A stretch of 57,994 nt of DNA from Candidatus Moranbacteria bacterium RIFOXYB1_FULL_43_19 (GCA_001784875.1 MFSH01000007.1:1-57994); one strand, 5' to 3'; shown: positions 5,563-56,095, numbered from the stretch's first letter. Notes: generated by a model from the letters alone, not told the origin. Made by a program: numbers and translations.

Positions 5563-5690
5563 TGGCAGTGAGTAACAAGGCAGTGAGCAGTGAGATTGGC
5601 AGTGGGTCATTAGTAGTGAGATTTTCGCTATACCTTAATTAAAAAACTCACAGCCAAAGACCAATGACCTGTCCCACAGCCAATAACCAT
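5563..5690 (+). repeat. family-B heptad inverted-arm element, empty copy
   Basis: gtaacaaggcagtgagcagtgagattggcagtgggtcattagt ... actcacagccaaagaccaatgacctgtcccacagcc; very similar to 14938-15076 and to the flanks of 7412-7792. Confidence 0.85.
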
Positions 5691-5692
5691 TT

Positions 5693-7360
5693 TTACCTAA
5701 GACTAAAACGAACCAAGGGCCAAAAAAGAAAGTAGGTCATTAAAGCAACGTATAAAAACAAAATGCCAAATACAAAAATATGCACCCTCCGGGCGCTTAT
5801 TTTTTTGTTCTGGAGAATCCAAAAGGAAACCGCGCCCAAAATCATAGCCGGAAAAAACAAAATCTTGGCGTTGAGCCAAACGACGCTCAAAGCGTAGGCG
5901 ATGAATATGCCAAGGCCAATAGAAAACCTTGCCCAGGTTTCGCCGAGCAGGACGGGAATTGTCCAAATCCCGTATTTTTTATCACTCTCGATGTCTTTGA
6001 GGTCCTTGATGGGGAGAGAAATCATGAAAGCGATGATGAGCAGCCAAAAAACCTTGGAGGGAAGCAGCGAAATGTCCTGGTTGTCAGCCAAAAGAATAAA
6101 ACCGCCCGAAAACAAGAGAACGAGAGCCAGAGCCGAAAGAAAACCAGCCACAATCGGGAATCTTTTGAGTCGGAAGGGCCAGCAGGAATACACCCAGCCA
6201 ATAACTTGATAGACGAGGATCAAAAGAAGAAATTTCACTCCGACCGTGAGAGACAGAACAAGGGATAAAAGAAAGCTGGCCAGAAAATAATGCTGGTATT
6301 CACCAGTTGAGACCTCGCCGGTCGCCGTCGGCCTATTTTTATTAGTGATTTTATCAATATCAAGGTCGACAATATCATTAAGGAACACTGAGGCCAGCCA
6401 AGCAAAAACCGCCGCGAGAATGAGATTGGAAAGGGCGAAAAAGGAGAAGATGTTGTCAGCCAGAGGCTGACCCCGCAAATCTGGGATATTTGCAGGGAAA
6501 TAAAAAGCGCCCAGTCCCGCGCCGAAAAGCACCAGACCGGCGTGAATCAGAATTTGGATCCAGCGAATGTTTTTCAAAACTGCGAAAAATTTTTCTTTGC
6601 TGAAAAAATAGAATAATGCGATGGCAGCGAAAACAACCAGAAACGCATAAATCAAATTCATCTTGGCGTTGAGCGCGTTCAGGATTTCGGTCCCCGAATA
6701 TGAGAAATAATGGATCGGGGAAAGAAAAAGTCCGGCCACATCAAGCCCTTCGATTTGAAACATGCTTTTTTGGGGCGCCAAAAAAAGAAAAGTGAGCCAG
6801 GAAGGAAACGACCCGAAAAGAAAAAGAATTGCGTAAGAAAGAAATCCTCCCAGAAACGCCTTCAGGGCGTTCCGGGTTTTGAGAAATATATATAAAATCA
6901 GAAAAATAACCGCCAGTGCCACCTCGATCCGGACGCCGTAAGTGATCCCAACCACCGGATCGCTCCCGAAAAAGGTGAGAAACCTTTTTCCGAGCCCCGC
7001 GAGGCTGTCAAAAGCGTAGAAACTCCAACAGCGCTGGGCCCCGCAAAAATATTTGTCGAGTATCGGAGGCGTGACAACCAAAAAAAATCCCCAGATCAAG
7101 AGATTCGCTATTTTTTGGAAAGATTCCCCAAGGTAAGCGCTTAAAAACAAAATCAGAAGGATTATCGAGAACAGGAAAAAGAGCCAGGCAGCCAGGAACG
7201 AACCGACAAGAAACTCGGGCGAATGGCTTTTGAGGCCGGAAATGAGATTTTCGCCCAAAACTCGCAGAGCTATGAGAGCCGAAAAAGCAAGAAGAAATTG
7301 GGGAAGAGAGAGAGGATATTCTTCAATTTTTTCCAAAATTTTTTTGGTCGTTGGTAACAT
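5693..7360 (-). CDS. UbiA-family prenyltransferase with N-terminal multi-TM extension
   Basis: NDIVDLDIDKITNKNRP and KDLKDIESDKKYGIWTIP aspartate-rich motifs; many TM helices. Confidence 0.85.
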   Translation of the reverse strand: MLPTTKKILEKIEEYPLSLPQFLLAFSALIALRVLGENLISGLKSHSPEFLVGSFLAAWLFFLFSIILLILFLSAYLGESFQKIANLLIWGFFLVVTPPILDKYFCGAQRCWSFYAFDSLAGLGKRFLTFFGSDPVVGITYGVRIEVALAVIFLILYIFLKTRNALKAFLGGFLSYAILFLFGSFPSWLTFLFLAPQKSMFQIEGLDVAGLFLSPIHYFSYSGTEILNALNAKMNLIYAFLVVFAAIALFYFFSKEKFFAVLKNIRWIQILIHAGLVLFGAGLGAFYFPANIPDLRGQPLADNIFSFFALSNLILAAVFAWLASVFLNDIVDLDIDKITNKNRPTATGEVSTGEYQHYFLASFLLSLVLSLTVGVKFLLLILVYQVIGWVYSCWPFRLKRFPIVAGFLSALALVLLFSGGFILLADNQDISLLPSKVFWLLIIAFMISLPIKDLKDIESDKKYGIWTIPVLLGETWARFSIGLGIFIAYALSVVWLNAKILFFPAMILGAVSFWILQNKKISARRVHIFVFGILFLYVALMTYFLFWPLVRFSLR

Positions 7361-7855
7361 GGCTGTGGGCAGCGGGACAAGTCATTAGCTGTGAGTCTTT
7401 GGATTTTGACTTTAGCAAAACTTGTCCCAGCTTTGTTTCAGCTTATAAATTTGTTTGCCGATTATTTCATATTCTTCAATTATCTTTTGCACGGAATCTT
7501 TGTTGACATAACCAGAATAAATATCCCTGACATGGCAAAGGCTAACAACCGTTTCATTGTCTTCCGCTAAAGCATCGTCCAAATATTTTTGAAAGCCTTT
7601 TTTCTGATGTTTTTTCCCGAACCCTTCCGCAATCAATCTCGGTATGGCTTTGGAAGATCTTCTTAATTGATCGACTAAATCAAATTTCTCTTCGGCTGGC
7701 AATTTAAACACTATTTTAGTGCAGACAATAACAGACAATTTATAAGACCGCTGATAAACTTCAAGATCCCGATAACTCCTTATTTTATTCATAAAATACC
7801 CATGACTAATGACCAAAGACCAAACCCACCGCCCACTGCCTTGTTACTCACAGCA
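7352..7855 (-). mobile_element. family-B heptad-arm cassette carrying a four-helix-bundle gene
   Basis: 5' arm gtgagtaacaaggcagtgggcggtgggtttggtctttggtcattagt; 3' arm ccaaagactcacagctaatgacttgtcccgctgcccacagccatgttacc, which contains the ATG of the ubiA-like gene. Confidence 0.75.
7412..7792 (-). CDS. four-helix-bundle protein (TIGR02436 / 23S rRNA-IVP / Avd-like)
   Basis: SYRDLEVYQ...LPAEEKFDLVDQLRRSSKAIPRLIAEG signature. Confidence 0.92.
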   Translation of the reverse strand: MNKIRSYRDLEVYQRSYKLSVIVCTKIVFKLPAEEKFDLVDQLRRSSKAIPRLIAEGFGKKHQKKGFQKYLDDALAEDNETVVSLCHVRDIYSGYVNKDSVQKIIEEYEIIGKQIYKLKQSWDKFC

Positions 7856-7926
7856 TATATTTAAACCTTACCAACAAAACCCCAATTTATCAACACCCTT
7901 AAAGCTTTGTTGACAGCAAAAAATTA

Positions 7927-7935
7927 TGGTATAAT
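7927..7935 (+). promoter_or_regulatory. extended -10 promoter for the T4SS-like operon
   Basis: TGGTATAAT with TTGTTG/TTGACA upstream; TTATCAACA DnaA-box-like site at ~7887. Confidence 0.55.
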
Positions 7936-8029
7936 TTTTGTATATTTACCCCGTCAGAAATTTGGCAAAAAATGAATCGGCGGGGGAGTTTTGCTGCAGA
8001 TATAAAACTAAATTAACCAAAACAAAAAT

Positions 8030-9166
8030 ATGATTTCAAACCGTCTCAAAAGAGCGAATAAGGCAAAAATTCTCGCGACGGGAATCGCCACTCTGGCTGT
8101 GTTTTTCTGGACGCTTTTTGCCGTTGCCGAAAACAAAAACAGTAACTCTCTTTTCCTTGACTCCGACCAGGACGGGCTTACCGACCAGGAAGAGCGAATG
8201 ATCGGCACCGATCCGCAAAACATTGACACGGACGGCGACGGATACTCCGACGGGAAAGAGGTTTCGAGCGGCTACAATCCCCTGAAGCCGGCTCCCGGCG
8301 ACCAGGTGGTGGCTGGAGCCGATCTTTCCGTCGGACAAAGCGGGAGCGGAGAGACCGCTGCCCCCAAAAACCCGCTGACTTCCTCCGGAGCAGTTGACCT
8401 GGCCGGACTTTCCGGCTCGGGCAGTCTTCTCGGTCTCGACAGCCCCGCTCTCACCAATGACACTTTGGCTGATCTTTCTTCCGACCCCCAAAACCCGAAT
8501 CTTACCAATGAGATGATCGGGCAACTTATGTCGCTCACCAAAACGAAAGCCGAGGGTTCTGAAGATTTCCTCAACAACCCGACTTTTTCCGCCGATGATC
8601 TTTCATCTGTAGCCCAAAATGCTCTCCAAACCACGAATATTACTGAAGAGCTTCCCGCTATCCGGGACGACGAAGTGAAGCTTCTCCCTCCCGTTGACGA
8701 CAAGAAGCTCGATCCGGAGGAGGTAAAAGAGGAGCAAAAAAAAGAGATCGAAAAATACTTGGCGTCTCTTGCTTTTGTTTTTGCCTCCAATTCACCTTTT
8801 TCAATCGACAACCCGGAAAATCTCGCTCCAAGCCTCGAGAAAGAACAGGAAAATCTTCTCACGGCTCTCACTACCGGAGACACATCCAAGATTGACGACT
8901 ATGCCCAAAAAGCCCGGACCGGAATCGAGCAGATCAAAAAAATAGAGGTGCCCTATGTTCTCGAAGACCTCCATAAGTCAGCATTGCAACTCGCGATATA
9001 CACTCTTGACCTTAAAGACAAAGCTGTTGTTGACCCCAATGATCCCTTGAAAAGCCTGGCCGCTTTCAGTTCAATCCGAGCGGTGGGGGATGCGGCCATG
9101 AAACTCGGCCAGGAGATGCAATCAGTCGCTGAACAGTATGGAATCAGCTTTATAAATTTTCCCTAA
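8030..9166 (+). CDS. exported protein with DxDxDG (TSP3-like) calcium-binding repeats
   Basis: N-terminal TM helix; DSDQDGLTDQEE...GTDP...DTDGDGYSDGKEV. Confidence 0.85.
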   Translation: MISNRLKRANKAKILATGIATLAVFFWTLFAVAENKNSNSLFLDSDQDGLTDQEERMIGTDPQNIDTDGDGYSDGKEVSSGYNPLKPAPGDQVVAGADLSVGQSGSGETAAPKNPLTSSGAVDLAGLSGSGSLLGLDSPALTNDTLADLSSDPQNPNLTNEMIGQLMSLTKTKAEGSEDFLNNPTFSADDLSSVAQNALQTTNITEELPAIRDDEVKLLPPVDDKKLDPEEVKEEQKKEIEKYLASLAFVFASNSPFSIDNPENLAPSLEKEQENLLTALTTGDTSKIDDYAQKARTGIEQIKKIEVPYVLEDLHKSALQLAIYTLDLKDKAVVDPNDPLKSLAAFSSIRAVGDAAMKLGQEMQSVAEQYGISFINFP

Positions 9167-9173
9167 AATATCT

Positions 9174-9656
9174 GAAACCCTAAGCACTAAGCACTAAGCA
9201 CTAAATCCTAAATAATATCAAATGACCGAAATTCAAAGTTCAAGACGCGGATATGACCTCGAAGACAGAACTTTGAAATTTGCTAAAGAAGTTAGATTTT
9301 TCGTCAGAAAGCTACCCAGGACAATTTCAAATATTGAGGATGGTAAACAATTAGTCAGAGCTTCCGGATCCATAGGAGCAAATTATATAGAAGCAAACGA
9401 AGCGTTGAGTAAAAAAGATTTTGTGATGAGGATAAAAATTTGCCGGAAAGAAGCCAAAGAAAGCTGTTACTGGCTAAGCCTAATCTTCACTAATGAAAAA
9501 GTTGAATTAGACAATGAGAGAAATAGCCTTATAAAAGAAGCTTCGGAACTCACAAGAATATTTGGATCAATAGTTGAAAAATCAAAATAGTTTTGAGGAT
9601 TAAAACATTTGGATTTCGAAATTATTTTGGATTTAGATATTAGAATTTAGGATTTG
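9174..9656 (+). mobile_element. family-A heptad-arm cassette carrying a four-helix-bundle gene
   Basis: 5' arm aaccctaagcactaagcactaagcactaaatcctaaataatatcaaatgacc; 3' arm tttggatttcgaaattattttggatttagatattagaatttaggattt; imperfectly complementary. Confidence 0.75.
9222..9590 (+). CDS. four-helix-bundle protein (TIGR02436)
   Basis: YDLEDRTLKFA...QLVRASGSIGANYIEANEALSKKDF...KEAKESCYWL signature. Confidence 0.93.
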   Translation: MTEIQSSRRGYDLEDRTLKFAKEVRFFVRKLPRTISNIEDGKQLVRASGSIGANYIEANEALSKKDFVMRIKICRKEAKESCYWLSLIFTNEKVELDNERNSLIKEASELTRIFGSIVEKSK

Positions 9657-9668
9657 AAAAACAAAAAT

Positions 9669-10685
9669 ATGTTCAAAAAAATCACTGCGACAATTCTCCT
9701 CCTGGCGCTTTTAGGCCTCGCAATGCCGCGTCCGGCCCGGGCTGACGCCTGGGGAACAAATCTGGCCGCCGCCATCGAAGGCGTGACTCTCACCAAAATG
9801 CTCGACACGATTGAGAAAACAATGGTCGCCAATCTCAAGATCATGGCCATTCGGATCATCCAGGGAAGGCTTCAGGTGCTTCTCACCGGATCCTGCGGCG
9901 CCTATTGCATCGGCGGCTCGTCAGGATTCATCACCGACTGGCAGGACTATATTTTCGGCTCGGCCCAGCGCACAGCCGAAAACACCGTCAACACTTTTTT
10001 CAACGGGATGCGAAGCGGTGTCGGCTCGGGCATGGAGCGGGTCGTGAATAATGCCCAAAAGAGACTTGACGCCGAAGTCTTGAGTACAAAGAAGCCAAAT
10101 CTTCAGAATTATGTCAGCGAAGGAAAAGTTGAATATATTTTCGATCCGACAAAATCAGTAAATAATCGTTGGATCGCCTTTCGTAAAAGTTTCGAGCCAC
10201 AAAATGATGAAGGATATATAGCATTGGGGGGATATACAAAAATGATGGAAGCCTTTCGCCAACAAGAAGAGCTCCGAAAAACAAAGGCCACCTCCTACCA
10301 AGGCTTCACGGGAACGGAGAAAAAACCTTCCCAAGCGGGAAAATACGGTCCAATGGGATATGGCTCTGAAAACGAAGGCTACGAATCAGTTTCTGAAGAA
10401 GGACTCACCTCCCTCCCCGGATCAGTGACAAAAGATTTCACTTCGGAAATCTCTCTTATGGGAGTGAAAATGATTGAATTCGCCCGATCCATTCCGGAAG
10501 TGGTTGCCAATATGGTTGCCCAGACGATTACCAGCCTCATCAACTACGGCATACGCCAGGTGACAGATCCGATTGACAACGCCGTCATCAACGTCCGCAA
10601 CAAAGTCGGAACGAGCATTAACCAAACCCAGAGCGATATCCAGTCAGGGATGAGAGAGTCCATTTATTTCAATAAGAAGCAATAA
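9669..10685 (+). CDS. secreted hypothetical protein, T4SS-cluster associated
   Basis: Signal peptide ending PRPARA; helical; immediately upstream of the VirB6-like gene. Confidence 0.8.
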   Translation: MFKKITATILLLALLGLAMPRPARADAWGTNLAAAIEGVTLTKMLDTIEKTMVANLKIMAIRIIQGRLQVLLTGSCGAYCIGGSSGFITDWQDYIFGSAQRTAENTVNTFFNGMRSGVGSGMERVVNNAQKRLDAEVLSTKKPNLQNYVSEGKVEYIFDPTKSVNNRWIAFRKSFEPQNDEGYIALGGYTKMMEAFRQQEELRKTKATSYQGFTGTEKKPSQAGKYGPMGYGSENEGYESVSEEGLTSLPGSVTKDFTSEISLMGVKMIEFARSIPEVVANMVAQTITSLINYGIRQVTDPIDNAVINVRNKVGTSINQTQSDIQSGMRESIYFNKKQ

Positions 10686-10731
10686 ACATGCTCTGCATTT
10701 TTCTTCAAAATCCGCGCTTAAAAAACCCTTA

Positions 10732-12942
10732 GTGAGCAAAAATAATCTCAAAAAAAATAAAATAATTCGCTTCGCTGTCATTTTTGTCTTAGCGCTTTTT
10801 TTCTTTTGCGGTAAACTAGAAATAAACATCATAAAATATAGCGGCTCTGATCCAACTCCGACAAAATATCGTATTCAGCTCTTTCAAAGCTCCCGAGCTC
10901 AGGAGTCAGCATTGCCAACGGGGGGCAGTCCTTTAATGGATACCTACCTAGAACAAACAAAAAATTCGCCCGGCATATGGGAAAGGATGATATCCGGAGG
11001 AATCATATTGGTCCTTGGAGGCATCCAGCTTGTTTGTGCATGGCTTGTGAATATCGCCGCCTATCTTTTGAATTCGATGCTTAGTCCAAGTCTCTATAAT
11101 TTTACTAGCGAACCTATTATCACGACTGGTTGGGCCGCAGTACGTGATGTTTGCAATCTTTTTTTTCTGCTCATTCTTCTTTTTATCGCTTTTTGTACTA
11201 TCCTCCAAATTGAAAAATACCACGCCAAAAAAACTCTTTTAACTTTCATTCTGATGGCCCTTCTCGTCAATTTCTCAAAACCCATCGCCATCTTCATCTT
11301 CGACGGCTCCCAGCTTCTTATGAACTTTTTTCTAGCAAAAATATCATCCGCCAGTGGCGGAGACTATGCGTCAAAAATTGCCGATATATCAGAAATTACT
11401 AAGATCTTTGGTAAATATAATTATGGATTTACAAAGGCGGAGGTTAACAGTTATCAGCTGGTTGCCAAATATATTTTCGCGATTATATTTCTATTTATGT
11501 TTGGCATAGCTCTACTTGTCATGGCCCTTTATCTTCTCATTCGAATAATTGCTCTCTGGCTTTTGATTATTGTGTCTCCTTTCGCCTTTCTATTCAATGC
11601 CGTTCCGGATTTCAAGAAAATATCCTCTGATTGGTGGGATGCTCTTTTCAAATATTCCTATGTTGGTCCATCAATAGCCTTTTTCTTATGGCTTTCTACT
11701 TTTCTTGCTACCTCTAGTATGAAGTCAAGTATAGAGAAATCGAGCCCTGGATCAAGCCAGGGTGATCCTCTTTTTACTACGGTAATTGCGGCTATTCTGC
11801 CTTATCTGGTCGTTCTTGTTTTTCTCTATGCCGCCATCATCATCTCCCAAAAATTCGGCATTGCTTTTGCCGGCGCTATCACCAGCCGGGCGAACAAGGC
11901 CTTGTCCTTCTTCCCGCGTAAAGGCTGGCAGGGAACGAAATATGCAGCGAGGGGCGCAGCGAAATGGGGGGAGAGAAAATTTCTTATGCCAGGCGGAAAA
12001 GAGGGTGGCTGGAATTTGAGCCCGCGGTCTTGGGTTCAGGGGTGGAAAGAAAGAGCTGCTGAAGTTGACCGAAGAGCGCTTTCGCAAGCCACCGCAGACT
12101 CACGCGACAAGCTGGGAGGATTTTTCAAAGACGGAAAAAATCCCAATTATCACCGGGAACTGGCTTACGCCCAGCTGGAAGGGGAAAAAAGGAAAGAGCT
12201 TGAAAGTATTTCCACGGAATCTAATCGTATGATTGATGAAATCAAAAAAATAGAGGCTAAAAAAGCGCAAGGAAAGACTCTTACCAAAGAAGAACAAGCT
12301 TCTGTCACTGCGGCGCTCAAAATAATATTCGATAACAATGATCAAGATGATTTCATGTTGGATGGAAGAGGCAAAAAAGACTTTGACCCATTCGAACTAA
12401 GGGAAGAGCTCAGAAAAACGCTTACTGGCATAGGGTTATCGGAGGAAGAATCCGCCAGACACGCCTACCATATGCAAAATACCGCCCTAATGCGCGGAAA
12501 TCTCGGTCATTTTGGTATGGCCTCCTTCAAGAATGGCAAATACTCTTTTAATAATGATGAACAACAACTAGCCAAAATTCTTGGAAAATACGGAACGATG
12601 GAATCCCAACAAAAAGCAAAAATTTTACACAGAAATGCGCTTATGCGAGAGGGTAGGGTATTGGCTGGTGAAACAAATCCGATCACTGGCGAGATTGCCA
12701 GTGATTATCAGCGCATATTCACTGAGATGCACAAGGTTGGAAGAGCTTTAGCCGCCGCCACAAACAAAGCCGAATTAGAACAATTGAACAGGGCCCGAGG
12801 AGATACTTTGGCCGCTGTTGGAAAATCGAAACATCTGATCGACGAGCAGGTTGATATCATAGAATCTCCGCAAGTAGCTGCGAAAATAAAAGAATTCACC
12901 AAAAGAATGGAAGATCTCCAATTTAAGGGAAATAAAAAATGA
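10732..12942 (+). CDS. VirB6/TrbL-like polytopic membrane protein with charged C-terminal tail
   Basis: GWAAVRDVCNLFF, LIRIIALWLLIIVSPFAF and WWDALFKY motifs typical of CPR VirB6; context with prgI and virB4. Confidence 0.75.
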   Translation: MSKNNLKKNKIIRFAVIFVLALFFFCGKLEINIIKYSGSDPTPTKYRIQLFQSSRAQESALPTGGSPLMDTYLEQTKNSPGIWERMISGGIILVLGGIQLVCAWLVNIAAYLLNSMLSPSLYNFTSEPIITTGWAAVRDVCNLFFLLILLFIAFCTILQIEKYHAKKTLLTFILMALLVNFSKPIAIFIFDGSQLLMNFFLAKISSASGGDYASKIADISEITKIFGKYNYGFTKAEVNSYQLVAKYIFAIIFLFMFGIALLVMALYLLIRIIALWLLIIVSPFAFLFNAVPDFKKISSDWWDALFKYSYVGPSIAFFLWLSTFLATSSMKSSIEKSSPGSSQGDPLFTTVIAAILPYLVVLVFLYAAIIISQKFGIAFAGAITSRANKALSFFPRKGWQGTKYAARGAAKWGERKFLMPGGKEGGWNLSPRSWVQGWKERAAEVDRRALSQATADSRDKLGGFFKDGKNPNYHRELAYAQLEGEKRKELESISTESNRMIDEIKKIEAKKAQGKTLTKEEQASVTAALKIIFDNNDQDDFMLDGRGKKDFDPFELREELRKTLTGIGLSEEESARHAYHMQNTALMRGNLGHFGMASFKNGKYSFNNDEQQLAKILGKYGTMESQQKAKILHRNALMREGRVLAGETNPITGEIASDYQRIFTEMHKVGRALAAATNKAELEQLNRARGDTLAAVGKSKHLIDEQVDIIESPQVAAKIKEFTKRMEDLQFKGNKK

Positions 12943-14357
12943 ACAACCTCAATCCCCAAAATAAATTTGAAAATTTTCACGGGCTTCCGGATCCGGAATG
13001 TGCTCTTATCATTGAACGCTATCTCCTCCAGGCGATTGAAAGCGACGTTTATATAGAATGGGAAATAGTCACCAAATTTTTGGAAGCTCCCTATGAAATG
13101 CGTGAGGCAATGAGCAAGCTTTTCAACGCCTCCCTCCGAAGAAATCTCCAGTCAATTGGCAACCTTACCATAAGTAGCTGGCTCAATAAGTATCTTAACA
13201 GATTTGCAAATATCGAGCGCTCTGCAACTTCATTTTTTGAGTTTGTTATGAATGACCCGGACGCAAAAGAATTATCCGCAACCGAAAAAATAAAACTTAT
13301 GCGGGTTTTGAGAATGTATGATTATCTTTTCGTCACTCCCATTTTTGATCTTGAAGATCCGCCGGCCGAAGCTCTGCTTCAATTTCCGATGTACCTAAAT
13401 CAAAATATAGCTGAGATCCAAGCTGAAATATCTTCTCTCGGGTTCAGAGACTCTGCCACCCCACAAGAAATATCGGAAAAACTTCAGCTTAAAGAAGCCT
13501 TGAGGCAATATCCAAAAATCGGAGAGCAGACAATCAGTTCAGCGCCGCTCAACATCAAGATTTTTGACCGTCCCGTTCGGCCTTCGATCCGAAATTGGCT
13601 CTACGATTACACTTCCCAGCTGGGCCAGGAGCCCCACGATTCAATGCAAAGAACCAATTTCCTTTTCCGGTCAGAGAACACGAAGAATTTGAGCTCGACC
13701 GAGAGGGAAAAATTGGGTATAATACTGAAGTCATTCGATGAAAACACGCCTCTTCCGATTGACACGGAGAACAACGAAGTTGTATTTGAAAATCTCGGGG
13801 CGCAGAAACTATCTGGCGGAGGGTATGACTCAGAACATATAACTCCGGTCTCTTACCAAAATCTGGCGGAAGAGTCATTTATCCAGGCTTATCCTAGGAT
13901 CGGCTCAGAGCCAACCGTCCGGCCCAGGCCTGTTCAGAATAATTTTGTCATGACTTTCCAGCCGCCAGAGACGAGGCCACCCATTTCGCCACAACCGGTC
14001 CAAACACAAAAACCAGATACAAAATACGAAATACGAGATACGAATAAAATCCAGTTCGTGAACCCATATCCAGCGCCGGAAACTCATAAAATGTCGTCAG
14101 TCAAACCAGAAATGGCCGGCGAGGCTCCCGTGAAGCTCAAGGGGTTTTCAGAGGGCGTTTTGAAACTAGCTGCTTCACCAACTGTGAAACAGACACAATT
14201 CTCAAAACCGAAGACGCCAACCCCTGCTAAACAGCCATGGTCCTATGCCCCAAGTCACCCCAAAAACATCATTTACCCTCATTACGGATCCGGCAGAGAA
14301 AGGAAACCGGATCCGAAGGTTGAGGGAAACATTGTTGATCTATCAGGAGAGAAATAA
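12939..14357 (+). CDS. hypothetical protein with Pro-rich C-terminus
   Basis: 472-aa ORF coupled to the previous gene by an ATGA overlap; ends GNIVDLSGEK. Confidence 0.8.
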   Translation: MNNLNPQNKFENFHGLPDPECALIIERYLLQAIESDVYIEWEIVTKFLEAPYEMREAMSKLFNASLRRNLQSIGNLTISSWLNKYLNRFANIERSATSFFEFVMNDPDAKELSATEKIKLMRVLRMYDYLFVTPIFDLEDPPAEALLQFPMYLNQNIAEIQAEISSLGFRDSATPQEISEKLQLKEALRQYPKIGEQTISSAPLNIKIFDRPVRPSIRNWLYDYTSQLGQEPHDSMQRTNFLFRSENTKNLSSTEREKLGIILKSFDENTPLPIDTENNEVVFENLGAQKLSGGGYDSEHITPVSYQNLAEESFIQAYPRIGSEPTVRPRPVQNNFVMTFQPPETRPPISPQPVQTQKPDTKYEIRDTNKIQFVNPYPAPETHKMSSVKPEMAGEAPVKLKGFSEGVLKLAASPTVKQTQFSKPKTPTPAKQPWSYAPSHPKNIIYPHYGSGRERKPDPKVEGNIVDLSGEK

Positions 14358-14358
14358 T

Positions 14359-14493
14359 TTGAAACCCTAAGCACTAAATCCTAAACTCTAAACAATACCA
14401 AATGACCAAAATTAAAAATTCAAAAAGTTTTTGACATTTGTATTTTGAGTTTTGGATTTATTTAGGATTTAGGAATTAGAATTTAGGATTTGA
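14359..14493 (+). repeat. family-A heptad inverted-arm element, empty copy
   Basis: gaaaccctaagcactaaatcctaaactctaaacaataccaaatgacc ... ggatttatttaggatttaggaattagaatttaggatttg; ends just before the ATG at 14498. Confidence 0.85.
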
Positions 14494-14497
14494 AACC

Positions 14498-14937: not shown

Positions 14938-15076
14938 AGGTGGGCAACAGGGCAATGAGCAATGAGATTGGCAGTGGGTCATTAGTAGTGGGATTTTCGC
15001 TATACTTTAATCTAAAAAACTCACAGCCAAAGACCCAAGACTTGTCCCACAGCCCACAGCCTTGTAACCAAAGACT
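14938..15076 (+). repeat. family-B heptad inverted-arm element, empty copy
   Basis: Very similar to 5563-5690, including the spacer gattttcgctatac. Confidence 0.85.
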
Positions 15077-15085: not shown

Positions 15086-15781
15086 ATGGAAAGCCTACAC
15101 TCCAAAAATTTAACCAAAAACGAAGCCCTTGGGAAATCGACCCAGGAGTTTGTTGATATCGCCGAAATCAAAGACGGAGTGGTTATTCTCAAAAACAACT
15201 CCCTCCGGGCAGTGCTTATGGTATCTTCTATTAATTTTGACTTGAAATCTACCCAGGAGCAGGAGGCTATCGTCGCCGCCTACCAGGGTTTTTTGAATTC
15301 TCTTGATTTCCCGCTCCAGATCATCATCAGCACCCGGAAGTTGGACATCAGCCCCTATATAGAATTGCTAACCGAACAAGAACGTATTCAGGAAAATGAT
15401 CTGCTTCGCTTCCAGATCAGTGAATACCGCGGTTTCATCAAAAACCTGGTCGGCACAGCCAATATCATGACCAAAACTTTCTATATCGTTGTTCCGTTCG
15501 CCCTCACCGAAGGAAAAAAAGGAGGATTTCTAGAAAAAATGAAAATTGCTCTCAATCCCAAGCAGGCCAAAATCGAGCGGGAAATGGAATTTGAAAATTA
15601 CAAAAGCCAGCTTTGGCAAAGAGTGGACCATATCACAGCCGGACTTTCCGGGACCGGAATAAAGATCGCCCCCCTGGGGACGGAAGAGCTTGTCGAGCTT
15701 TTCTACAACGCCTATAACCCGAAAGTGACCGAATCGGCAGAAAAAATAGAAACGGAGAAGCTGGAGATGGGGAGAATTTAA
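15086..15781 (+). CDS. TraC/VirB4 N-terminal-like T4SS protein
   Basis: STQEFVDIAEIKDGVVILK...SINFDLKS..EQEAIV.AY..FLNSLDFPLQI; lies between prgI and virB4. Confidence 0.8.
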   Translation: MESLHSKNLTKNEALGKSTQEFVDIAEIKDGVVILKNNSLRAVLMVSSINFDLKSTQEQEAIVAAYQGFLNSLDFPLQIIISTRKLDISPYIELLTEQERIQENDLLRFQISEYRGFIKNLVGTANIMTKTFYIVVPFALTEGKKGGFLEKMKIALNPKQAKIEREMEFENYKSQLWQRVDHITAGLSGTGIKIAPLGTEELVELFYNAYNPKVTESAEKIETEKLEMGRI

Positions 15782-15790: not shown

Positions 15791-15907
15791 GTGGGTAACA
15801 AGGTCATTGGCAGTGAGCCTGGCTGTGGGTCATAAGTCTCTGGATATTTTCCAAGGACCCAAGACCAATGACCTGTCCCACAGCCCAAAACCTAGTTACC
15901 AATGACT
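15791..15907 (+). repeat. family-B heptad inverted-arm element, empty copy
   Basis: gtgggtaacaaggtcattggcagtgagcctggctgtgggtca ... gaccaatgacctgtcccacagcccaaaacctagttacc. Confidence 0.8.
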
Positions 15908-24461: not shown

Positions 24462-25628
24462 ATGACTAAAAAAATATTTGCCATATCGACTCTTCTTCTT
24501 GTGCTTGTAACCGGGTCTATTTTTGCCTACAATTTCCTTTTTAAGAAACCGGACTCTCAAGATAGCGGGGACGAAACGGCTAAAACCAGTGAAGAAGGGC
24601 AACTCAAAGAGACAAAACCAAGCCAAATAGCGGGTGGAGAAAAAGCTTCCATTCAGGCTCTTTCCGAGGAGTCGGTTTTCGGGGCAACTCTTTCGCCCGA
24701 TGGCGGCTATCTATATGTTTTTCTCGCCGAAAACGGACAGCTCAACCAAATCGATCTTTCCGGAAAACTGGAAAAGGTCATCTCTACCGAAAAATTCCAA
24801 AATATCAAAAATGTCATTTGGAATAAGCCTAGAAACAAGGCCATTATCAAAACCGAGCCCAGCCCGGGCACAGTAAAATTCCTTTATTTCGACATTTCCG
24901 GAAAAAAAGTTTCCGTTCTCAAGGAAAATATTGATTCTGTCACCTGGTCAAATTTGGGTGACAAGATCATCTACACGCATTATGACCCTAAAACCCAAAA
25001 AAGAACTGTGAATATAGCCGATCCTAATGGAAGCAATTGGAAAGTTATTGCTGAAATCGGGTATCGTAGCGCTGAAGTGGCTCCCGTGCCCGGGTCATCT
25101 GACCTTTCTTTCTGGCCCATTCCTAATGCTTTCACCGCTGCTTCTCTGGTCTCCGTTTCTTTCGGGGGAGAAAACCAAAAAGAAATTCTCAAGGATCGCT
25201 ATGGAGCGGATTTTCTCTGGGCGCCAAACGGCACCCGCGCCGCCATGAGCGCATCGGACCAAAAGGGCGGCCACAAAATTGATCTTCTCGTTATGAACCG
25301 GCAGGGAGGCGAAGTCCAGTCTCTTATGCTTCCGACTTTTGCTTCGAAGTGCGCCTGGTCGTCCGACTCGAAATATTTGTATTGCGCTATGCCAGGAAAC
25401 ATTCCTGATTCGGCGATTCTTCCCAACGACTGGCAGGAAGGCAAAATAGCTCCTTCGGATACTTTTTGGAAAGTTGACGCTTCCAACGGGAAAAGAGAGA
25501 GACTGGTTGACCCGGAAAAAATCGGCGGCACTTACGACGCGCTGAATCCCTTCCTTTCTTCAGACGAAAAATCGCTCTTCTTTGTTTCGAAAAGCGATGG
25601 AAAACTTTATAGGCTGACATTAAATTAG
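24462..25628 (+). CDS. TolB-like beta-propeller membrane-anchored protein
   Basis: N-terminal TM helix; repeated SPDG/WSNLG/WAPNG/WSSD blades. Confidence 0.8.
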   Translation: MTKKIFAISTLLLVLVTGSIFAYNFLFKKPDSQDSGDETAKTSEEGQLKETKPSQIAGGEKASIQALSEESVFGATLSPDGGYLYVFLAENGQLNQIDLSGKLEKVISTEKFQNIKNVIWNKPRNKAIIKTEPSPGTVKFLYFDISGKKVSVLKENIDSVTWSNLGDKIIYTHYDPKTQKRTVNIADPNGSNWKVIAEIGYRSAEVAPVPGSSDLSFWPIPNAFTAASLVSVSFGGENQKEILKDRYGADFLWAPNGTRAAMSASDQKGGHKIDLLVMNRQGGEVQSLMLPTFASKCAWSSDSKYLYCAMPGNIPDSAILPNDWQEGKIAPSDTFWKVDASNGKRERLVDPEKIGGTYDALNPFLSSDEKSLFFVSKSDGKLYRLTLN

Positions 25629-26977
25629 TTTTTTTCTAATCGTTTTTCCGCTAAAAATAAATTTACCGCCACTATCGTCCAAAAAATCACCGCCATATCG
25701 TTTCTCCAGTAGGTCGTATCAACGAGACCGTGAATGAGAAAATAAAGAATTATCGCAAGAAATATAGATCCATAAAAATCGCGGGCCCCTTCACCAAAAT
25801 TATTTTTTTCAGACGGGCTTTCCTGGGTCTGTTTTTTTGTTTTATGGACCAGGGCATTATGGTGTTCACTAATTTTGGTGAGTGGGTAAATTTTTTTGTT
25901 ATCTTTGAAAAACAACCAAACTACCCAAAAAAATCCAGCGAGACCCGCGAGTCCCGACTCAAGCCAAAAGGCAAGATACAAATTGTGGGGCTGGGGAACT
26001 GCCCATTCAAGATAAGGCGGAAAATATTTTTGGTATTCCAGGTATTTTTCTTGGAAATTTCCCGGACCGATCCCCAAAACAGGATTTTTCTCAATCATCA
26101 GCCCGGCTGATTTCCAGATCATTTCTCGCGACGCCAGAGACGAGCGCTCGCCAAGTTTTTTTATGTTTTCGAATTTTCCGAAGCTCGCAGCGGCTATAAA
26201 GATTATTAAAATTATAATGGTTATAGCCAGATATTTTATCGGCCATAATTTCCTATATTTAAGCCAAAATACGATCATTAGCACAAGACCAATCGCCAGC
26301 CATGCCCCATAAGATTTTGTAAGATAAAGGTTGAATGAAATTAATAGCATCCCTACGATTGCAAAATATTTTTCCCAAAGCTCGGCTTTTTTTCCAAAGC
26401 TCGGCTTTTCTCTTGCCCCGACTAAGTCGGGGCAATTCATCAAAGCCAAGCTTTCGCCGAACTTTATCAGCCCGATCAAGAACGCCGGCGCTAGGAACAT
26501 CGCCAGCTGGTTAGGCGAGTCGAAAAATATTCGGAGGCGCCCGTCATAGGCCAAAAGCCCAAACAGCCAATAATATATTCCTTCAATCGCCGTGAAAGCG
26601 CCCGAGGCAAAAAGAACAACGAATACTCTGTCCAGCAGTTTTTCATCTTTTTTGAGATTATTGTATAAAATAACCGCGAAAATTATCGGAAGAACAAACC
26701 AGCCCTTGAGAATGCCGAGGCCAACGTAGTAATTCTTGTTAATTAATATAGATAATATTAACCCAGTGATAATTAGCGCTGTTGGTATTGCGTATTGCGT
26801 ATAGCGTATTGCGTATTTTATTTCTTTATTCGAAAACCAAACAAGAAAGAGCGCGATTACCAAAATTTCAACCAAGCTCAAAGAAATCCAATCGTGTTTG
26901 AACTTTATAAAATAAAAAGGAAGGAAAAACAAAGTTGAGAGGATCAGAATTTGTTGTGAACGTTTTATCAATGACAT
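25625..26977 (-). CDS. O-antigen ligase (Wzy_C) family protein with in-frame repeat insertions
   Basis: SPNQLAMFL, TKSYGAW, REMIW...GIGPGNF...PHNLYL, HGLVD. Confidence 0.88.
   Translation of the reverse strand: MSLIKRSQQILILSTLFFLPFYFIKFKHDWISLSLVEILVIALFLVWFSNKEIKYAIRYTQYAIPTALIITGLILSILINKNYYVGLGILKGWFVLPIIFAVILYNNLKKDEKLLDRVFVVLFASGAFTAIEGIYYWLFGLLAYDGRLRIFFDSPNQLAMFLAPAFLIGLIKFGESLALMNCPDLVGAREKPSFGKKAELWEKYFAIVGMLLISFNLYLTKSYGAWLAIGLVLMIVFWLKYRKLWPIKYLAITIIILIIFIAAASFGKFENIKKLGERSSLASREMIWKSAGLMIEKNPVLGIGPGNFQEKYLEYQKYFPPYLEWAVPQPHNLYLAFWLESGLAGLAGFFWVVWLFFKDNKKIYPLTKISEHHNALVHKTKKQTQESPSEKNNFGEGARDFYGSIFLAIILYFLIHGLVDTTYWRNDMAVIFWTIVAVNLFLAEKRLEKN
25784..25888. mobile_element. 105-bp in-frame hairpin mini-element
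   Basis: ccccttcaccaaaatta ... taattttggtgagtggg; encodes YPLTKI...NFGEGA. Confidence 0.65.
26375..26454. repeat. nested REP-like hairpins inside CDS
   Basis: ccaaagctcggctttt x2, perfect hairpin ttgccccgactaagtcggggcaa, closing arm aaagccaagcttt. Confidence 0.65.
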
Positions 26978-27026
26978 ATAATGCAAGAGATTTTAGTTTT
27001 ACATTGTCGCTTTTCGCTTTTAGTTT

Positions 27027-30610: not shown

Positions 30611-30616
30611 AAAAGA

Positions 30617-30747
30617 AAAATCCTAATTTCTAAATACTAAATCCTAAAAAATATCAAAATTAAAAATTCAAATGACCAAACTTTCGGGTTTTTAATTTCG
30701 GTAATTTGAGTTTGTCTAGGATTTAGTGCTTAGGATTTTGGATTTCT
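30617..30747 (-). repeat. family-A heptad inverted-arm element, empty copy
   Basis: Minus strand: aaatccaaaatcctaagcactaaatcctagac ... ttaggatttagtatttagaaattaggattt, ending just before the flippase ATG. Confidence 0.85.
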
Positions 30748-46562: not shown

Positions 46563-46645
46563 GAGTAACCCGTAACACGAAACATGACTCACGATTGGAA
46601 GATTTATCCTTTAGTGTGTCGTGTTATGAGCATCGTGTGTCGAGA
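46563..46645 (-). repeat. family-C heptad inverted-arm element, empty copy overlapping the ruvC 3' end
   Basis: Minus strand: ctcgacacacgatgctcataacacgacac ... gtgagtcatgtttcgtgttacgggttactcga. Confidence 0.75.
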
Positions 46646-47140
46646 ATTGAGATGACATATCGCAATTGCCACTGCGTCGGCAGCGTCATCTGGCTTTGGA
46701 GCACACTTGAGCTTCAAAATATTCTTTACCATAATTTGAATTTGTTTTTTTTCGGCCCGGCCGTATCCAGTGAGAGCCTGTTTTACCTGAAGAGGGGTAT
46801 AGTTTGAAAGAGGAACTCCGTTCTTCTTTATCTCATATAAGATAACCCCGCGGGCTTGGGCGACCGTAACCGCAGTCTTCAAGTTTTTGAAAAAGAAAAG
46901 ATCTTCAATGGCGGCTTCATCGGGTTTGAATTTTTTGACGAGCGATTGAATGTCGCGTCCAATTTCAACCAGCCGCTCCGCATCAGAGTTAATTTTCGAA
47001 GTGTTGATACATCCGCAAGCCACCAGCCGCGGATTTTTTTTGTTTTCTTCAACCACGGCCCAGCCGGTCGTGGCCGTGCCGGGATCAACTCCCATAACAC
47101 GAAACCCGTAACATGACTCGCGAGAGGACTTATTTTTCAT
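46604..47140 (-). CDS. ruvC: Holliday junction resolvase RuvC
   Basis: GVDPGTATTGW, AIEDLFF.KN, QARGV, PLQVKQ..TGYGRA.K, PDDAADA.AIA. Confidence 0.96.
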   Translation of the reverse strand: MKNKSSRESCYGFRVMGVDPGTATTGWAVVEENKKNPRLVACGCINTSKINSDAERLVEIGRDIQSLVKKFKPDEAAIEDLFFFKNLKTAVTVAQARGVILYEIKKNGVPLSNYTPLQVKQALTGYGRAEKKQIQIMVKNILKLKCAPKPDDAADAVAIAICHLNSRHTMLITRHTKG

Positions 47141-47514
47141 TTCTTATAATGCCAAAGAGCATGGCGCCTATTTCGTCGGCCAGATTCAAGGCTTTTTTAT
47201 AATCGTCATTTGATAAATATTTTTCGACTAGGGCAAAATGGAGAAGATATTTTAATTCCTTTAAAGATGCATAAGAAATTCTAAAAAAGTTTTGCTTAGA
47301 TTTTTCCCTATATCTAGCGAATCCCTCGATGTAATTCAAGATAATGGATAAAGCCGCTCGTCGAATTTGTGAAGTAACTCCGTAAAGTTCTTCTCGAGGG
47401 AATTCTCTTGTGATTTTATAAACGAAGTGGACATAATCATCCATTATCTTTCTAAGTTTTTTATGAAATAGTTCTTCCATTTGTGTGTCGAGTTACGTGT
47501 TACGAGATGCGTGA
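47094..47514 (-). mobile_element. family-C heptad-arm cassette carrying a four-helix-bundle gene
   Basis: 5' arm tcacgcatctcgtaacacgtaactcgacac; 3' arm cgagtcatgttacgggtttcgtgtta; inserted in the yebC-ruvC junction. Confidence 0.75.
47130..47480 (-). CDS. four-helix-bundle protein (TIGR02436)
   Basis: FPREELYGVTSQIRRAALSIILNYIEG...ISYASLKE. Confidence 0.93.
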   Translation of the reverse strand: MEELFHKKLRKIMDDYVHFVYKITREFPREELYGVTSQIRRAALSIILNYIEGFARYREKSKQNFFRISYASLKELKYLLHFALVEKYLSNDDYKKALNLADEIGAMLFGIIRNEK

Positions 47515-49386: not shown

Positions 49387-49404
49387 GAATTAAATGCAAT
49401 TTCC

Positions 49405-50996: not shown

Positions 50997-51322
50997 AAGT
51001 CTTTGGAAAGGTGAAAAAAGGCGAGGGGAAAGGAGCGAAGTTGGGGTTTCCGACGGTTAATGTTGAATTAGAAGAAAAAACGAGAAACGGGGTTTATGCA
51101 GGTTCCGCAAAATTAGGTGATAAAAATTATAAAGCTGGAATTTTTGTCAATCTGGACGGAAAATTGTTAGAAGCACATCTCGTTGGATTTTCGGGAGATT
51201 TATATGGTGAAGAGATTGAGATAAAGATTGGGAAGAAGATTAGAAACGTAATGAAATTCAAAAGCGAGGAAGAGTTGGAAAGGCAGATAAAAAAAGATAT
51301 AAGTATAATTTCCAATTTCTAA
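50993..51322 (+). CDS. ribF: monofunctional riboflavin kinase
   Basis: G.V.KG.G.G.KLGFPTVN, GVY, EAHL..FSGDLYG, R..MKF; no FAD synthetase domain. Confidence 0.88.
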   Translation: MKVFGKVKKGEGKGAKLGFPTVNVELEEKTRNGVYAGSAKLGDKNYKAGIFVNLDGKLLEAHLVGFSGDLYGEEIEIKIGKKIRNVMKFKSEEELERQIKKDISIISNF

Positions 51323-51396
51323 TTCCCAATTTCCAATGAAAATCCAAATCGCTAATGTCAAAATTTAAAATTTTGATATTGGATATTAGAAATTTA
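51306..51396 (+). repeat. family-A-related heptad inverted-arm element, degenerate empty copy
   Basis: aatttccaatttctaattcccaatttccaa ... ttgatattggatattagaaatt; ends at the ribE ATG. Confidence 0.65.
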
Positions 51397-51397
51397 A

Positions 51398-52075: not shown

Positions 52076-52517
52076 AAAAGGGCACTCGAAAAAAATTGAC
52101 GGGTCAAAACTGAAAATTGGCATCGTTGTTTCAAAGTTTAATGACAATATCACCAAGCCTATGTTTGATGGTTCGCTGGAAACTCTCAAGGAAAATAAAG
52201 TTAAAGTGGAAAATATAAAAACTGTCTGGGTTCCGGGGTCGTTTGAAATTCCGCTGGCTTGCCAGAGACTCGCCGAAACGAAAAAATTTGACGCTCTAGT
52301 GGCGATTGGGTGTGTGATCAAAGGCGAAACGGATCATTTCTATTATATTTGCAATGAAGTTTCGCGGGGAACAATGGATGTAATGCTGAAATTCGATATT
52401 CCCATAGGATTCGGGGTGCTCACGACTCAAAACCTGAAACAAGCCCGAGTCCGCTCCCGCGGAAAAGAAAACAAAGGCCGCGAAGCCGCCGAAGCGGCGC
52501 TTGCAGTGGTAGATTAA
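52062..52517 (+). CDS. ribH: 6,7-dimethyl-8-ribityllumazine synthase
   Basis: IVVSKFN, VPGSFEIP, GCVIKGETDHF, PIGFGVLT, NKGREAA. Confidence 0.97.
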   Translation: MLNAKKGHSKKIDGSKLKIGIVVSKFNDNITKPMFDGSLETLKENKVKVENIKTVWVPGSFEIPLACQRLAETKKFDALVAIGCVIKGETDHFYYICNEVSRGTMDVMLKFDIPIGFGVLTTQNLKQARVRSRGKENKGREAAEAALAVVD

Positions 52518-52587
52518 AGGAAAATTTAGTGGAAGTGGACGCAGATCGTAGTATAATCAAGATAATAAAAAGGAAAAAATAGTGTCA

Positions 52588-55066: not shown

Positions 55067-55067
55067 T

Positions 55068-56072
55068 ATGATCACAAAAACATTCAAAGAAATCTCAAAA
55101 AAAGATGTCGGGATTGCCGGTGGGAAGGGAGCATCGTTGGGTGAGATGACCAGTGTAGGGATTCCGGTGCCGCCGGGATTTGTTATTCTTGCTGAAGCCT
55201 TTGACCGGTTTTTGGAAGAAACGGATTTGGGGGTCGATATCGTTTCCCTTCTCAAAAAAATAAATTACAAGGATCTCAATTCAGTTGATCGGGCGTCGCA
55301 CGAAATTCGGGATATGATTCACGATGTCCCCATGCCGAAAGACCTCGCCAAATTATTTTTAAACGAATTTAAAAAACTAAAGGCCCCGTACGTCGCGGTT
55401 CGCAGCAGCGCAACGGCTGAAGATTCGGCGGTCGCTTCCTGGGCGGGGGAGCTGGAAACCTATCTCAACACCACCGAAAAAAATATTTTTGAAAACATCA
55501 AAAAATGCTGGTCTTCACTTTTCACGCAAAGAGCTTTGTTTTACGCCTTTGAAAAAGGAGTATTTTTAAAAAAACACCAGCAAAAAATCCGGGCTGGCAC
55601 ATCTAAAATTAAAGACTCTTACCCGGTGAGCGTGGCAGTAGTCGTCCAAAAAATGATCCAGTCGGAGATATCAGGAATTTGTTTCACGGTGCATCCAGTC
55701 ACGCAGGATCGAAACCAAATGGTTATCGAAGCCGGATATGGGCTTGGAGAAGCAATCGTTTCCGGTCAGATAACGCCAGACACCTATGTCGTTGCCAAAC
55801 GAGACTGGAGCATTGCTGACATCAATTTTTCCAAACAAACGCGGATGATTGTCAAAAATAAGAGAGGGGGAGTGGAATGGAAACCAGTACCGAAGAAAAA
55901 ACAAAATCAGCAGAAGCTGAATGGGCGTCAAATTATTGGTCTTGCCAAACTTTGCGATCACCTCGAAAAACACTATAAGCATCCGCAAGACATCGAATGG
56001 GCACTTGAGAAAGGCAAATTCTATATCACGCAAAGTAGGCCGATAACGACGTTAAATTCACGTAACACATAA
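55068..56072 (+). CDS. PEP synthase/PPDK N-terminal ATP-binding domain protein
   Basis: GGKGASLGEM, VPPGF, AVRSSATAEDS, GLGEAIVSG, PQDIEW, QSRPIT. Confidence 0.92.
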   Translation: MITKTFKEISKKDVGIAGGKGASLGEMTSVGIPVPPGFVILAEAFDRFLEETDLGVDIVSLLKKINYKDLNSVDRASHEIRDMIHDVPMPKDLAKLFLNEFKKLKAPYVAVRSSATAEDSAVASWAGELETYLNTTEKNIFENIKKCWSSLFTQRALFYAFEKGVFLKKHQQKIRAGTSKIKDSYPVSVAVVVQKMIQSEISGICFTVHPVTQDRNQMVIEAGYGLGEAIVSGQITPDTYVVAKRDWSIADINFSKQTRMIVKNKRGGVEWKPVPKKKQNQQKLNGRQIIGLAKLCDHLEKHYKHPQDIEWALEKGKFYITQSRPITTLNSRNT

Positions 56073-56095
56073 CGCGAAACACGCAACAAAGAAGA

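Follow-up and report, generated by a model that had tools for sequence, protein, structure and literature searches.

Intervening sequences (IVSs) of bacterial 23S rRNA genes offer a precedent for the elements described here, which lie between protein-coding genes of Candidatus Moranbacteria bacterium RIFOXYB1_FULL_43_19 (GCA_001784875.1), a groundwater member of the candidate phyla radiation (CPR)/Patescibacteria with a small genome. The window that was analyzed is one complete contig of 57,994 nucleotides (MFSH01000007.1:1-57994, contig C7 of the genome referred to below as G000), and its elements are palindromic arrays of 7-nt units found either with or without a gene of the PF05635/TIGR02436 four-helix-bundle family. 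According to the description available for Coxiella, the 23S IVS holds an S23p open reading frame (ORF) within a loop that is closed by terminal inverted repeats paired as a stem, 3-4 tandem heptameric repeats precede the start codon in numbers that vary from strain to strain, and the stem is cut internally by RNase III (PMC4990558). The same account, which cites papers of 1993 for the IVS ORFs, relates that the IVS has long been suspected of being a mobile element with an ORF serving mobility, and that a Xanthomonas protein of the family is a pentameric toroid (PMC4990558). Insertions with an S23p-type ORF are also among those reported from CPR rRNA genes, both 16S and 23S (PMC11270868). The elements of the window share with the ORF-bearing 23S rRNA IVSs, among them those with S23p ORFs of the Leptospira, Brucella and Xanthomonas type, the PF05635 family, an ORF in the loop of an inverted-repeat stem and, as in Coxiella, heptads beside that ORF; they differ in standing between protein-coding cistrons and in having dozens of gene-less derivatives in one genome. 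To our knowledge, no function has been assigned to the very widespread IVS protein family since IVS ORFs were described in the early 1990s.

Cyanobacterial STRR sequences (short repetitive sequences repeated in tandem), as characterized in PMC2670836, are usually made of 7-bp repeats, can form hairpins between cistrons such as hupS-hupL and are of unknown function, with a role in transcript stability or translation coupling having been proposed. Like them, the hairpins studied here consist of tandem 7-nt units and are intercistronic, with the difference that the host belongs to the CPR rather than to the (heterocystous) cyanobacteria. Our searches of the open-access literature found no tie between STRR sequences and a protein, nothing that connects four-helix-bundle/S23p genes with STRR sequences or with heptad hairpins of intergenic regions, and no account of hairpins of this type from CPR genomes. 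STRR repeats have served in cyanobacterial fingerprinting and are equally unexplained, and Vioque reportedly described one inside an RNase P RNA gene in 1997.

Three further systems bear comparison. Hairpin repeats resembling MITEs (miniature transposable elements with inverted repeats), such as Correia/NEMIS and ERIC, are co-transcribed with genes, are ~100-150 nt long, have terminal inverted repeats, are dispersed between genes in either orientation and fold as hairpins in mRNA. The elements here resemble MITEs in that short copies are dispersed, have inverted ends and are homologous to the ends of a longer parent; unlike MITEs, they have no transposase-bearing parent, their arms are heptad arrays instead of unique terminal repeats, and the small protein of the parent looks non-enzymatic. 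Repetitive extragenic palindromic (REP) sequences and REPINs, with their REP-associated tyrosine transposases (RAYTs), are likewise palindromic intergenic repeats, but the palindromes at the Y1 genes of G000 are short, perfect and non-heptad, unlike the heptad hairpins. Avd of the diversity-generating retroelements (DGRs) is a basic, pentameric protein that binds nucleic acid and reverse transcriptase, and it belongs to a homologous four-helix-bundle fold family; one of the three proteins of the window (family C, below) passes the bAvd cut-off, whereas the genes here have no adjoining reverse transcriptase, template or variable repeat. The elements are best described as a variation on known kinds rather than as a wholly new kind; they connect three unexplained phenomena and open them to test.

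Gene-bearing cassettes and linkage of the protein to its arms

Three genes matching TIGR02436 were identified in G000 (1,005,247 bp, 23 contigs, 43% G+C), all of them inside the window. Named families A, B and C after their arms, they scored 72.6, 65.3 and 94.2 bits with the curated hidden Markov model of TIGR02436 (cut-off 24) and 50.8, 75.7 and 94.6 bits with that of PF05635 (cut-off 33.8). A sequence-only reading of this DNA had described each gene as enclosed by imperfect inverted arms, and the arms are indeed present there: in 3/3 cassettes both the minimum-free-energy and the centroid fold join the 5' and 3' arms by pairing over the ORF, with modest z-scores for the cassettes as a whole (-1.8, -2.15 and -2.27). 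The family A cassette, on the plus strand, opens with a 5' arm of CTAAGCA/CTAAATC heptads at 9174..9221 (heptad array 9164-9224), which reaches from just past the upstream stop to the ATG; its gene (9222..9590) encodes 122 aa of subtype II (ANYxEA motif, pI 9.3), and its 3' arm of GATTTAG-type heptads (9591..9656) ends at the start of the next gene. On the minus strand, the family B cassette has its 5' arm, in the sense of the gene, at 7793..7855 (heptad array 7801-7840), a gene at 7412..7792 that encodes 126 aa from an ATG or 134 aa from an upstream TTG (pI 9.2), and a 3' arm at 7352..7411 that abuts the start of a UbiA-family gene (5693-7360). The family C cassette, also on the minus strand, lies between yebC and ruvC, with a 5' arm of CGTAACA-type heptads (47481..47514) immediately after yebC, a gene for 116 aa of subtype Ib (47130..47480; NYIEG) and a 3' arm (47094..47129) that overlaps the ruvC start region.

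The sole ORF of the gene-bearing form is the four-helix-bundle protein of 116-126 aa, and no transposase accompanies it. All three cassettes sit between protein-coding genes and none in an rRNA helix, each filled gene has the same orientation as the gene downstream of it in 3/3 cases, as had been claimed, and Rfam gave no match anywhere in the window. The earlier labels for yebC, ruvC, PrgI and the TraC/VirB4-like ATPase were confirmed; the family A and B genes and their gene-less copies cluster around the UbiA-family gene, a TSP3-repeat protein, PrgI and that ATPase. A 78% identical, syntenic copy of the family C gene occurs in another genus, and orthologues of its cassette were matched in 5/19 genomes of the family, too few for a covariation test. 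A promoter-like stretch (a TTGACA-type box, then a TATAAT-type box) lies in 7861-8029, ahead of the gene at 8030-9166, and is kept in G000 and its congeners G001 and G002; in G000 the family B cassette stands on its far side, before the divergent UbiA-family gene. Among contigs of four DNA sequencing runs, one in run X7 skips 9165-9740; it possibly derives from a relative and was not used as evidence, the contigs being dominated by other loci or organisms that share family A arms.

The same architecture recurs across the protein family. TIGR02436 matches were found in 34/41 related genomes, with up to 13 per ~1-Mb genome. Flanks were surveyed for 76 of these genes with usable flanks from ~26 genomes (one locus was counted twice) and for 268 control ORFs, with arm pairing measured by local alignment relative to shuffles and called inverted at z>=4. 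Inverted flanks were observed for 41/76 genes and 12/268 controls, and heptad periodicity of both flanks for 32/76 genes and 5/268 controls. A profile built from one subtype retrieved 80 loci, 55-72% identical, from very distant CPR groups and from a few bins labelled otherwise; among the 77 loci with usable flanks, 7 nt was the best lag upstream in 55 and downstream in 57, and the flanks of 45 were inverted. Over these 150 or more cassettes, which come from many CPR lineages, the arrays abut the start and stop codons, and 4-5 units make up 64/82 of the 5' arms and 45/66 of the 3' arms.

Outside the CPR, six loci were inspected. A Riemerella (Bacteroidota) plasmid gene has inverted heptad arms (z 12.3), and the inverted arms of a Picosynechococcus plasmid gene, which stands between cas10 and cmr3, have a period of 8. 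In Pseudanabaena, perfect 7-nt tandem arrays in direct orientation (lag-7 identity 1.0) lie on either side of a plasmid gene located between cas6 and cas4, so that in both of these cyanobacteria short repeat arrays fill the spacers on either side of a four-helix-bundle gene within a CRISPR-cas operon. A plasmid locus of Nostoc PCC 7120 has a 7-nt array downstream (lag-7 identity 0.83), an Azospirillum copy inside 23S rRNA has heptads 3' of the ORF, and the Calothrix copy has no heptad array.

The proteins themselves are small and basic, with a median length of 123 aa, a median pI of 9.5 and a median net charge of +7 (n = 75). They share the motif Q..R...S...N..E and a second E, with conservation of 1.0 (Q), 0.93 (R), 0.99 (S), 0.99 (N), 0.99 (E) and 1.0 (second E). 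The nearest solved structures to a profile of subtype Ia are 2GSC (E 3.7e-27) and 2RLD, each with five chains, and the protein is probably pentameric.

Arms and proteins vary together. The higher the identity of two proteins, the more similar their arms (Spearman 0.23; Mantel 0/500), arms being similar in 7/7 protein pairs with at least 80% identity, in 33% at 60-80% and in ~1% below 45%. Each subtype has its own heptad core: G[TA]A[TG] occurs 8.2 times per element in subtype Ia, compared to 1.2 and 1.0 in the other subtypes, [CT]AAA 7.2 times in subtype II, compared to 1.9, and AACA 4.0 times in subtype Ib, compared to 0.5. Within subtype Ia, the own 3' arm was the best complement of the 5' arm in 21/107 elements and among the top five in 51 (median rank 6), with a mean pairing score of 25.1 for own arms and 14.8 for others. 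The expected agreement of arm family with protein clade is thus borne out, and sequence comparison shows protein lineage and heptad core to be inherited together and the two arms to evolve together. Among 12 protein pairs with at least 75% identity, flanking genes were homologous in seven, matched weakly on one side in two and did not match in three, including a pair with 94% identity, the available flanks often being only ~250 nt; the seven homologous cases indicate stable residence across genera.

Presence of the arrays also goes with presence of the genes in the genomes that were sampled. G034 (400 kb) and G030 (192 kb) carry no TIGR02436 gene, and no heptad array was detected in these 592 kb. 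G023, a congener of G034, has five genes and eight arrays in 400 kb, G007 has 13 genes and 26 arrays in 158 kb, G033 has 13 genes and 13 arrays in 66.5 kb, and G000 itself has three genes and 218 arrays in 1005 kb.

Gene-less hairpins, their derivation and turnover

The initial observation holds, is statistically solid and proves wider than first described, since heptad hairpins are spread over the whole genome. Crude longest-ORF gene calls gave 563 intergenic regions that were folded, and 163 hairpins of at least 25 bp were found in them; 63 of these exceed a periodicity threshold set so that 2.1% of random windows exceed it, and lag 7 is the peak in 59/63. A lag-7 detector that is independent of gene calls, and that catches family B poorly, returned 218 arrays in G000 compared to 4 in a block-shuffled genome, and strict heptad hairpins numbered 42 and 0, respectively. 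The ~7-nt unit that had been noticed in the window is therefore a feature of the genome at large, and BLAST searches with the window arms matched most G000 contigs. Plain counts of consensus units revealed many unit families, the largest being a GTAT/ATAC type with ~45 arrays, followed by the family A type (~40) and the family C type (~23); single-linkage clustering of the heptad consensus merged all of them into one cluster. Only three arrays in G000 carry a TIGR02436 gene. The view that three proteins have three private arm families did not survive these counts.

The periodic hairpins (n = 63) lie predominantly within operons, with 57 between co-oriented, four between divergent and two between convergent genes; for all spacers of at least 50 nt (n = 569) the numbers are 398, 95 and 76. 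On the upstream side they start from the stop codon (median -1), and on the downstream side a median of 11 nt separates them from the next start, in agreement with the extent that the sequence-only reading had given for the arms, and no evident Shine-Dalgarno sequence was seen between the hairpin end and the next start in the periodic hairpins of G000. Their polarity is that of the gene-bearing cassettes: 27 G000 hairpins have the heptad core on the 5' arm, and none has it on the 3' arm. In 23/57 5' arms every reading frame meets a stop within the initial 35 nt, compared to 19% of shuffled arms and 43/341 other spacers; we regard this as a by-product, and do not count it as a finding, because a period of 7 is not a multiple of three and so brings any stop triplet of the core into each frame. 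Two genes, ruvA (C23:3677-4335) and a prepilin-like gene (C9:41530-42253), are bracketed by GTAT/ATAC arrays in the opposite polarity, with the 3'-arm type upstream and the 5'-arm type downstream, the upstream array of the prepilin-like gene running into its leader codons; each of the two genes appears to lie between two half-elements.

The gene-less copies that had been listed for the window fold as long imperfect hairpins, and most retained their family assignment. Two belong to family A: 14358..14495, between the ORF at 12939-14357 and prgI (z -4.9), which holds a remnant of the gene's first codons, and 30614..30747, between an R3H-domain gene and a polysaccharide-synthesis gene (z -4.95). 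The hairpin at 51306..51396, between riboflavin kinase and lumazine-binding genes (z -3.6), had also been placed in family A, but its BLAST partners differ and its AATTTCC/CTAATTT units mark a different subfamily. Family B copies, which are richer in GC, were found at 5553..5692, between the convergent rRNA adenine dimethylase and UbiA-family genes (z -1.8), at 14938..15076, between prgI and the ORF at 15086-15781 (z -1.3), and at 15791..15907, before the TraC/VirB4-like ATPase (z -3.3). Family C is represented by a hairpin at 46563..46645 (z -1.76) at the ruvC 3' end, where the inner part overlaps the last ruvC codons (stop at 46604), and by a half-arm at 56058..56088, a heptad array that has no partner and, as anticipated, no fold of its own (z -0.45). 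One arm of the hairpin at ruvC encodes the last ~13 codons of the ruvC frame (46604-46645), and the hairpin appears to supply the end of the protein together with its stop codon.

That list of copies was incomplete, given the genome-wide copies and three more arrays in the window. An ATAC-type array (13999-14051) lies within the 3' part of the ORF at 12939-14357, ~300 nt before its stop, where either the array was absorbed into coding sequence or the ORF frame is over-extended. A GTAT-type array (26775-26832) lies near the 5' end of the ORF at 25625-26986, and a T-rich array (26995-27042) in the junction after that ORF has no obvious hairpin pair with it.

Filled and empty forms are homologous, as had been proposed. 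Once set in their intrinsic orientation, 15 family A copies can be aligned from end to end (~130 nt), a single block common to all of them has no compensating change on the opposite arm in any copy, and the inner part of the empty copies keeps a remnant of the family A gene's first codons. Relative to the flanking genes, seven copies run one way and eight the other. The family A empties are homologous copies of the gene-bearing form that have undergone internal deletion.

Comparison of orthologous junctions with the congeners G001 and G002, whose gene products are ~47-94% identical to those of G000, revealed the filled, empty and absent states that had been predicted, along with replacement of one family by another. 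At the junction of the genes starting at 8030 and 9654 (J3), G000 has the family A cassette with its gene, G001 a plain 30-nt spacer and G002 an empty hairpin of the family B type. At the prgI/15086 junction (J7), the empty family B copy of G000 corresponds in G001 to a TIGR02436 gene in arms of another unit type and in G002 to an empty copy of a third type. The junctions 12939/prgI and 15086/traC are occupied in all three genomes, each time by a different family in the congeners. Over the five element-bearing G000 junctions compared (J1, J3, J6, J7 and J8), the congeners have another family, the filled form (G001, J7) or nothing (G001, J3). In G002, near-identical copies of one element occupy three adjoining junctions.

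Because the cassettes carry no recombinase, movement would need a trans factor or recombination between arrays. The absence of a recombinase, as initially noted, holds for the window; the genome as a whole has seven paralogous Y1/HUH transposase-like ORFs and two reverse transcriptases. The Y1/HUH ORFs (213-235 aa; C2:40864-41529, C17:38707-39369, C19:1144-1785, C1:16009-16695, C17:7537-8229, C17:46017-46724 and C18:41811-42485) are each flanked on both sides by a ~22-nt perfect, non-heptad palindrome in a RAYT/REP-like manner, and heptad hairpins do not systematically flank these genes in G000. The reverse transcriptases are of the DGR type (C11:9326-11967 and C13:33475-36144) and have template and variable repeats. 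In both DGRs the target gene precedes the reverse transcriptase, and its C-terminal stretch is repeated in the template copy with asparagine-rich changes; no Avd gene adjoins either of them in G000. RNase III is encoded by one gene.

Selfish element, RNA punctuation or accessory gene

We consider these loci to be a class of palindromic, heptad-periodic elements of intercistronic spacers, whose complete form would consist of a 5' arm, a PF05635/TIGR02436 gene and a 3' arm, that is, the architecture of ORF-bearing 23S rRNA IVSs placed in mRNA operons. The gene-less hairpins would be internal-deletion derivatives, as MITEs are of transposons. The element would be transcribed within its host operon and its arms would pair, as a segmented stem of ~30 bp in the filled form and of 50-60 bp in the empties. 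Host RNase III could then cut the stem, separating the cistrons and releasing the ORF RNA, so that, we propose, the insertion is tolerated. The small basic protein is envisaged to bind heptad arrays belonging to its own lineage, which typically have 4-5 units in each arm, and thereby to control its own expression or processing or to help the element to persist or be copied. We put the probability that these are selfish palindromic elements of the IVS/STRR type, in gene-bearing and gene-less forms, with a basic pentameric protein acting on its own heptad arms, at roughly 0.55. Within this account we infer RNase III cleavage, protein binding to the arms and the mode of movement; more speculatively still, the elements might control mRNA processing or translation.

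Several observations weigh against this interpretation. The largest unit family (GTAT/ATAC) has no gene-bearing copy in G000, and G013, a 90% complete genome without a TIGR02436 gene, has three heptad arrays in the 96 kb sampled. The sense and antisense forms of the hairpins are equally stable (31 versus 25 of 57, p=0.56), and the family B gene-less hairpins fold weakly in the sense RNA and more stably in the antisense. Neither the equal stability nor the 7 versus 8 orientation of family A ties the empties to the RNA strand, and the missing strand asymmetry would suit an element acting at the DNA level just as it would an RNA one. The arms fold, but compensatory change in family A was not significant, with four double changes, a number reached by 65/300 shuffles. 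A target-site duplication was not definable from the inspected ends, the exact limits of the element not being settable because the arms are degenerate. Repeats are direct rather than inverted at 5/76 surveyed genes and at the Pseudanabaena and Nostoc plasmid loci. There are also limits of sampling and method: counts across genomes overstate independence because the genomes are kin, the heptad cores used to compare subtypes were picked with the data already in view, contigs of G007 and G033 were sampled partly because they are gene-bearing, and the G000 gene calls are crude.

Chance folding of AT-rich, low-complexity spacers might be suspected from the composition of the spacers and the modest z-scores of whole cassettes, but it was refuted by the genome shuffles (4 versus 218 arrays, 0 versus 42 hairpins), and the specific lag-7 peak, the full-length alignment of 15 copies and the existence of the GC-richer family B copies leave it a negligible chance. 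A stronger contender, which we nonetheless hold to be rather unlikely, is that the hairpins are host-beneficial RNA punctuation (stabilizers, processing sites, translation couplers or terminators) maintained by selection, in which the genes have lodged or act as a dispensable regulator. Such a role would suit the occupation of J6, J7 and J8 in all three congeners despite differing sequences, the exact filling of the stop-to-start spacer and enrichment within operons, and the synteny of some cassettes across genera, for example the yebC/ruvC cassette at 78-82% identity; it is also what has been put forward for STRR sequences (transcript stability or translation coupling, PMC2670836). It accounts poorly for the lack of any array in 400 kb of G034 when its congener G023 has arrays, for copies in either orientation, for the 30-nt spacer of G001 at J3 where G000 and G002 carry an element, for proteins 55-72% identical that are spread over very distant CPR lineages, and for cassettes of this kind that occur elsewhere within rRNA genes and within cas operons. 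The pattern of occupancy looks more like that of a selfish element than of a conserved regulator.

Mobility might instead be provided at the DNA level, in a REP/REPIN-like system whose hairpins are single-stranded DNA substrates of Y1/HUH (IS200/RAYT-like) transposases, with the four-helix-bundle gene as cargo or as an accessory DNA-binding factor. The insertion of empties regardless of orientation and the absence of an RNA strand bias would agree with this, as would the seven Y1_Tnp-like ORFs (~220 aa) of G000. A Y1 match was found in 29/41 genomes of the order, and its presence tracks that of TIGR02436 (27/34 positive and 2/7 negative genomes); because Y1 genes also correlate with TIGR02436, the co-occurrence of arrays and genes is confounded, a further point against the selfish-element interpretation. 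The Y1 genes, however, have short perfect non-heptad palindromes of their own in the usual RAYT-REP arrangement, seven TIGR02436-positive genomes, including G027 (six genes) and G040 (five genes), have no Y1 match, G014 and G029 have Y1 without a four-helix-bundle gene, and heptad cores go with the four-helix protein's subtype; we therefore judge a REP/REPIN-like system to be distinctly improbable. Least credible among the biological alternatives, and very improbable, is that the genes encode Avd accessory proteins of the two G000 DGRs and that the flanking repeats are irrelevant. The two reverse transcriptases without an adjacent Avd gene invite the idea, and the family C protein passes Pfam bAvd PF22296 (47.5 bits, cut-off 40). 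That protein alone matched the NCBIfam Avd equivalog NF033474, with 44.7 bits where the cut-off is 80, the genes (C7) and the reverse transcriptases (C11 and C13) are on separate contigs, there are up to 13 genes per 1-Mb genome, and the arms are left unexplained. Moreover, a reverse transcriptase is absent from 12/34 TIGR02436-positive genomes and present in two of the seven negative ones (G024 and G030), so that a DGR role cannot explain the family.

Implications for the protein family and its hosts

The data draw a concrete and testable link between the protein and a cognate 7-nt array, from co-occurrence, from the tracking of subtype by heptad core and from the joint evolution of the arms. 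The same architecture is met in CPR operons, on a Bacteroidota plasmid, in rRNA insertions and in two cas operons on cyanobacterial plasmids. We tentatively advance a broader possibility, to which we assign lower odds than to the element itself: PF05635 proteins may be heptad-binding pentamers, with about one 7-nt unit per subunit and 4-5 units to an arm, that form with their arrays a self-perpetuating class of element across bacterial phyla. 23S IVS ORFs, cyanobacterial STRR sequences and stand-alone Avd-like genes would then be one phenomenon, and at least a tenth of operon junctions would be punctuated by it in some CPR.

If the protein does bind the repeats, these loci would represent a new kind of mobile or self-maintaining element without a recombinase of its own, and would hint at the ancestral activity of DGR Avd. 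It would also mean that 60-100 structured insertions are tolerated in the operons of some of the smallest bacterial genomes, with a bearing on how mRNA is processed and translated in these organisms.

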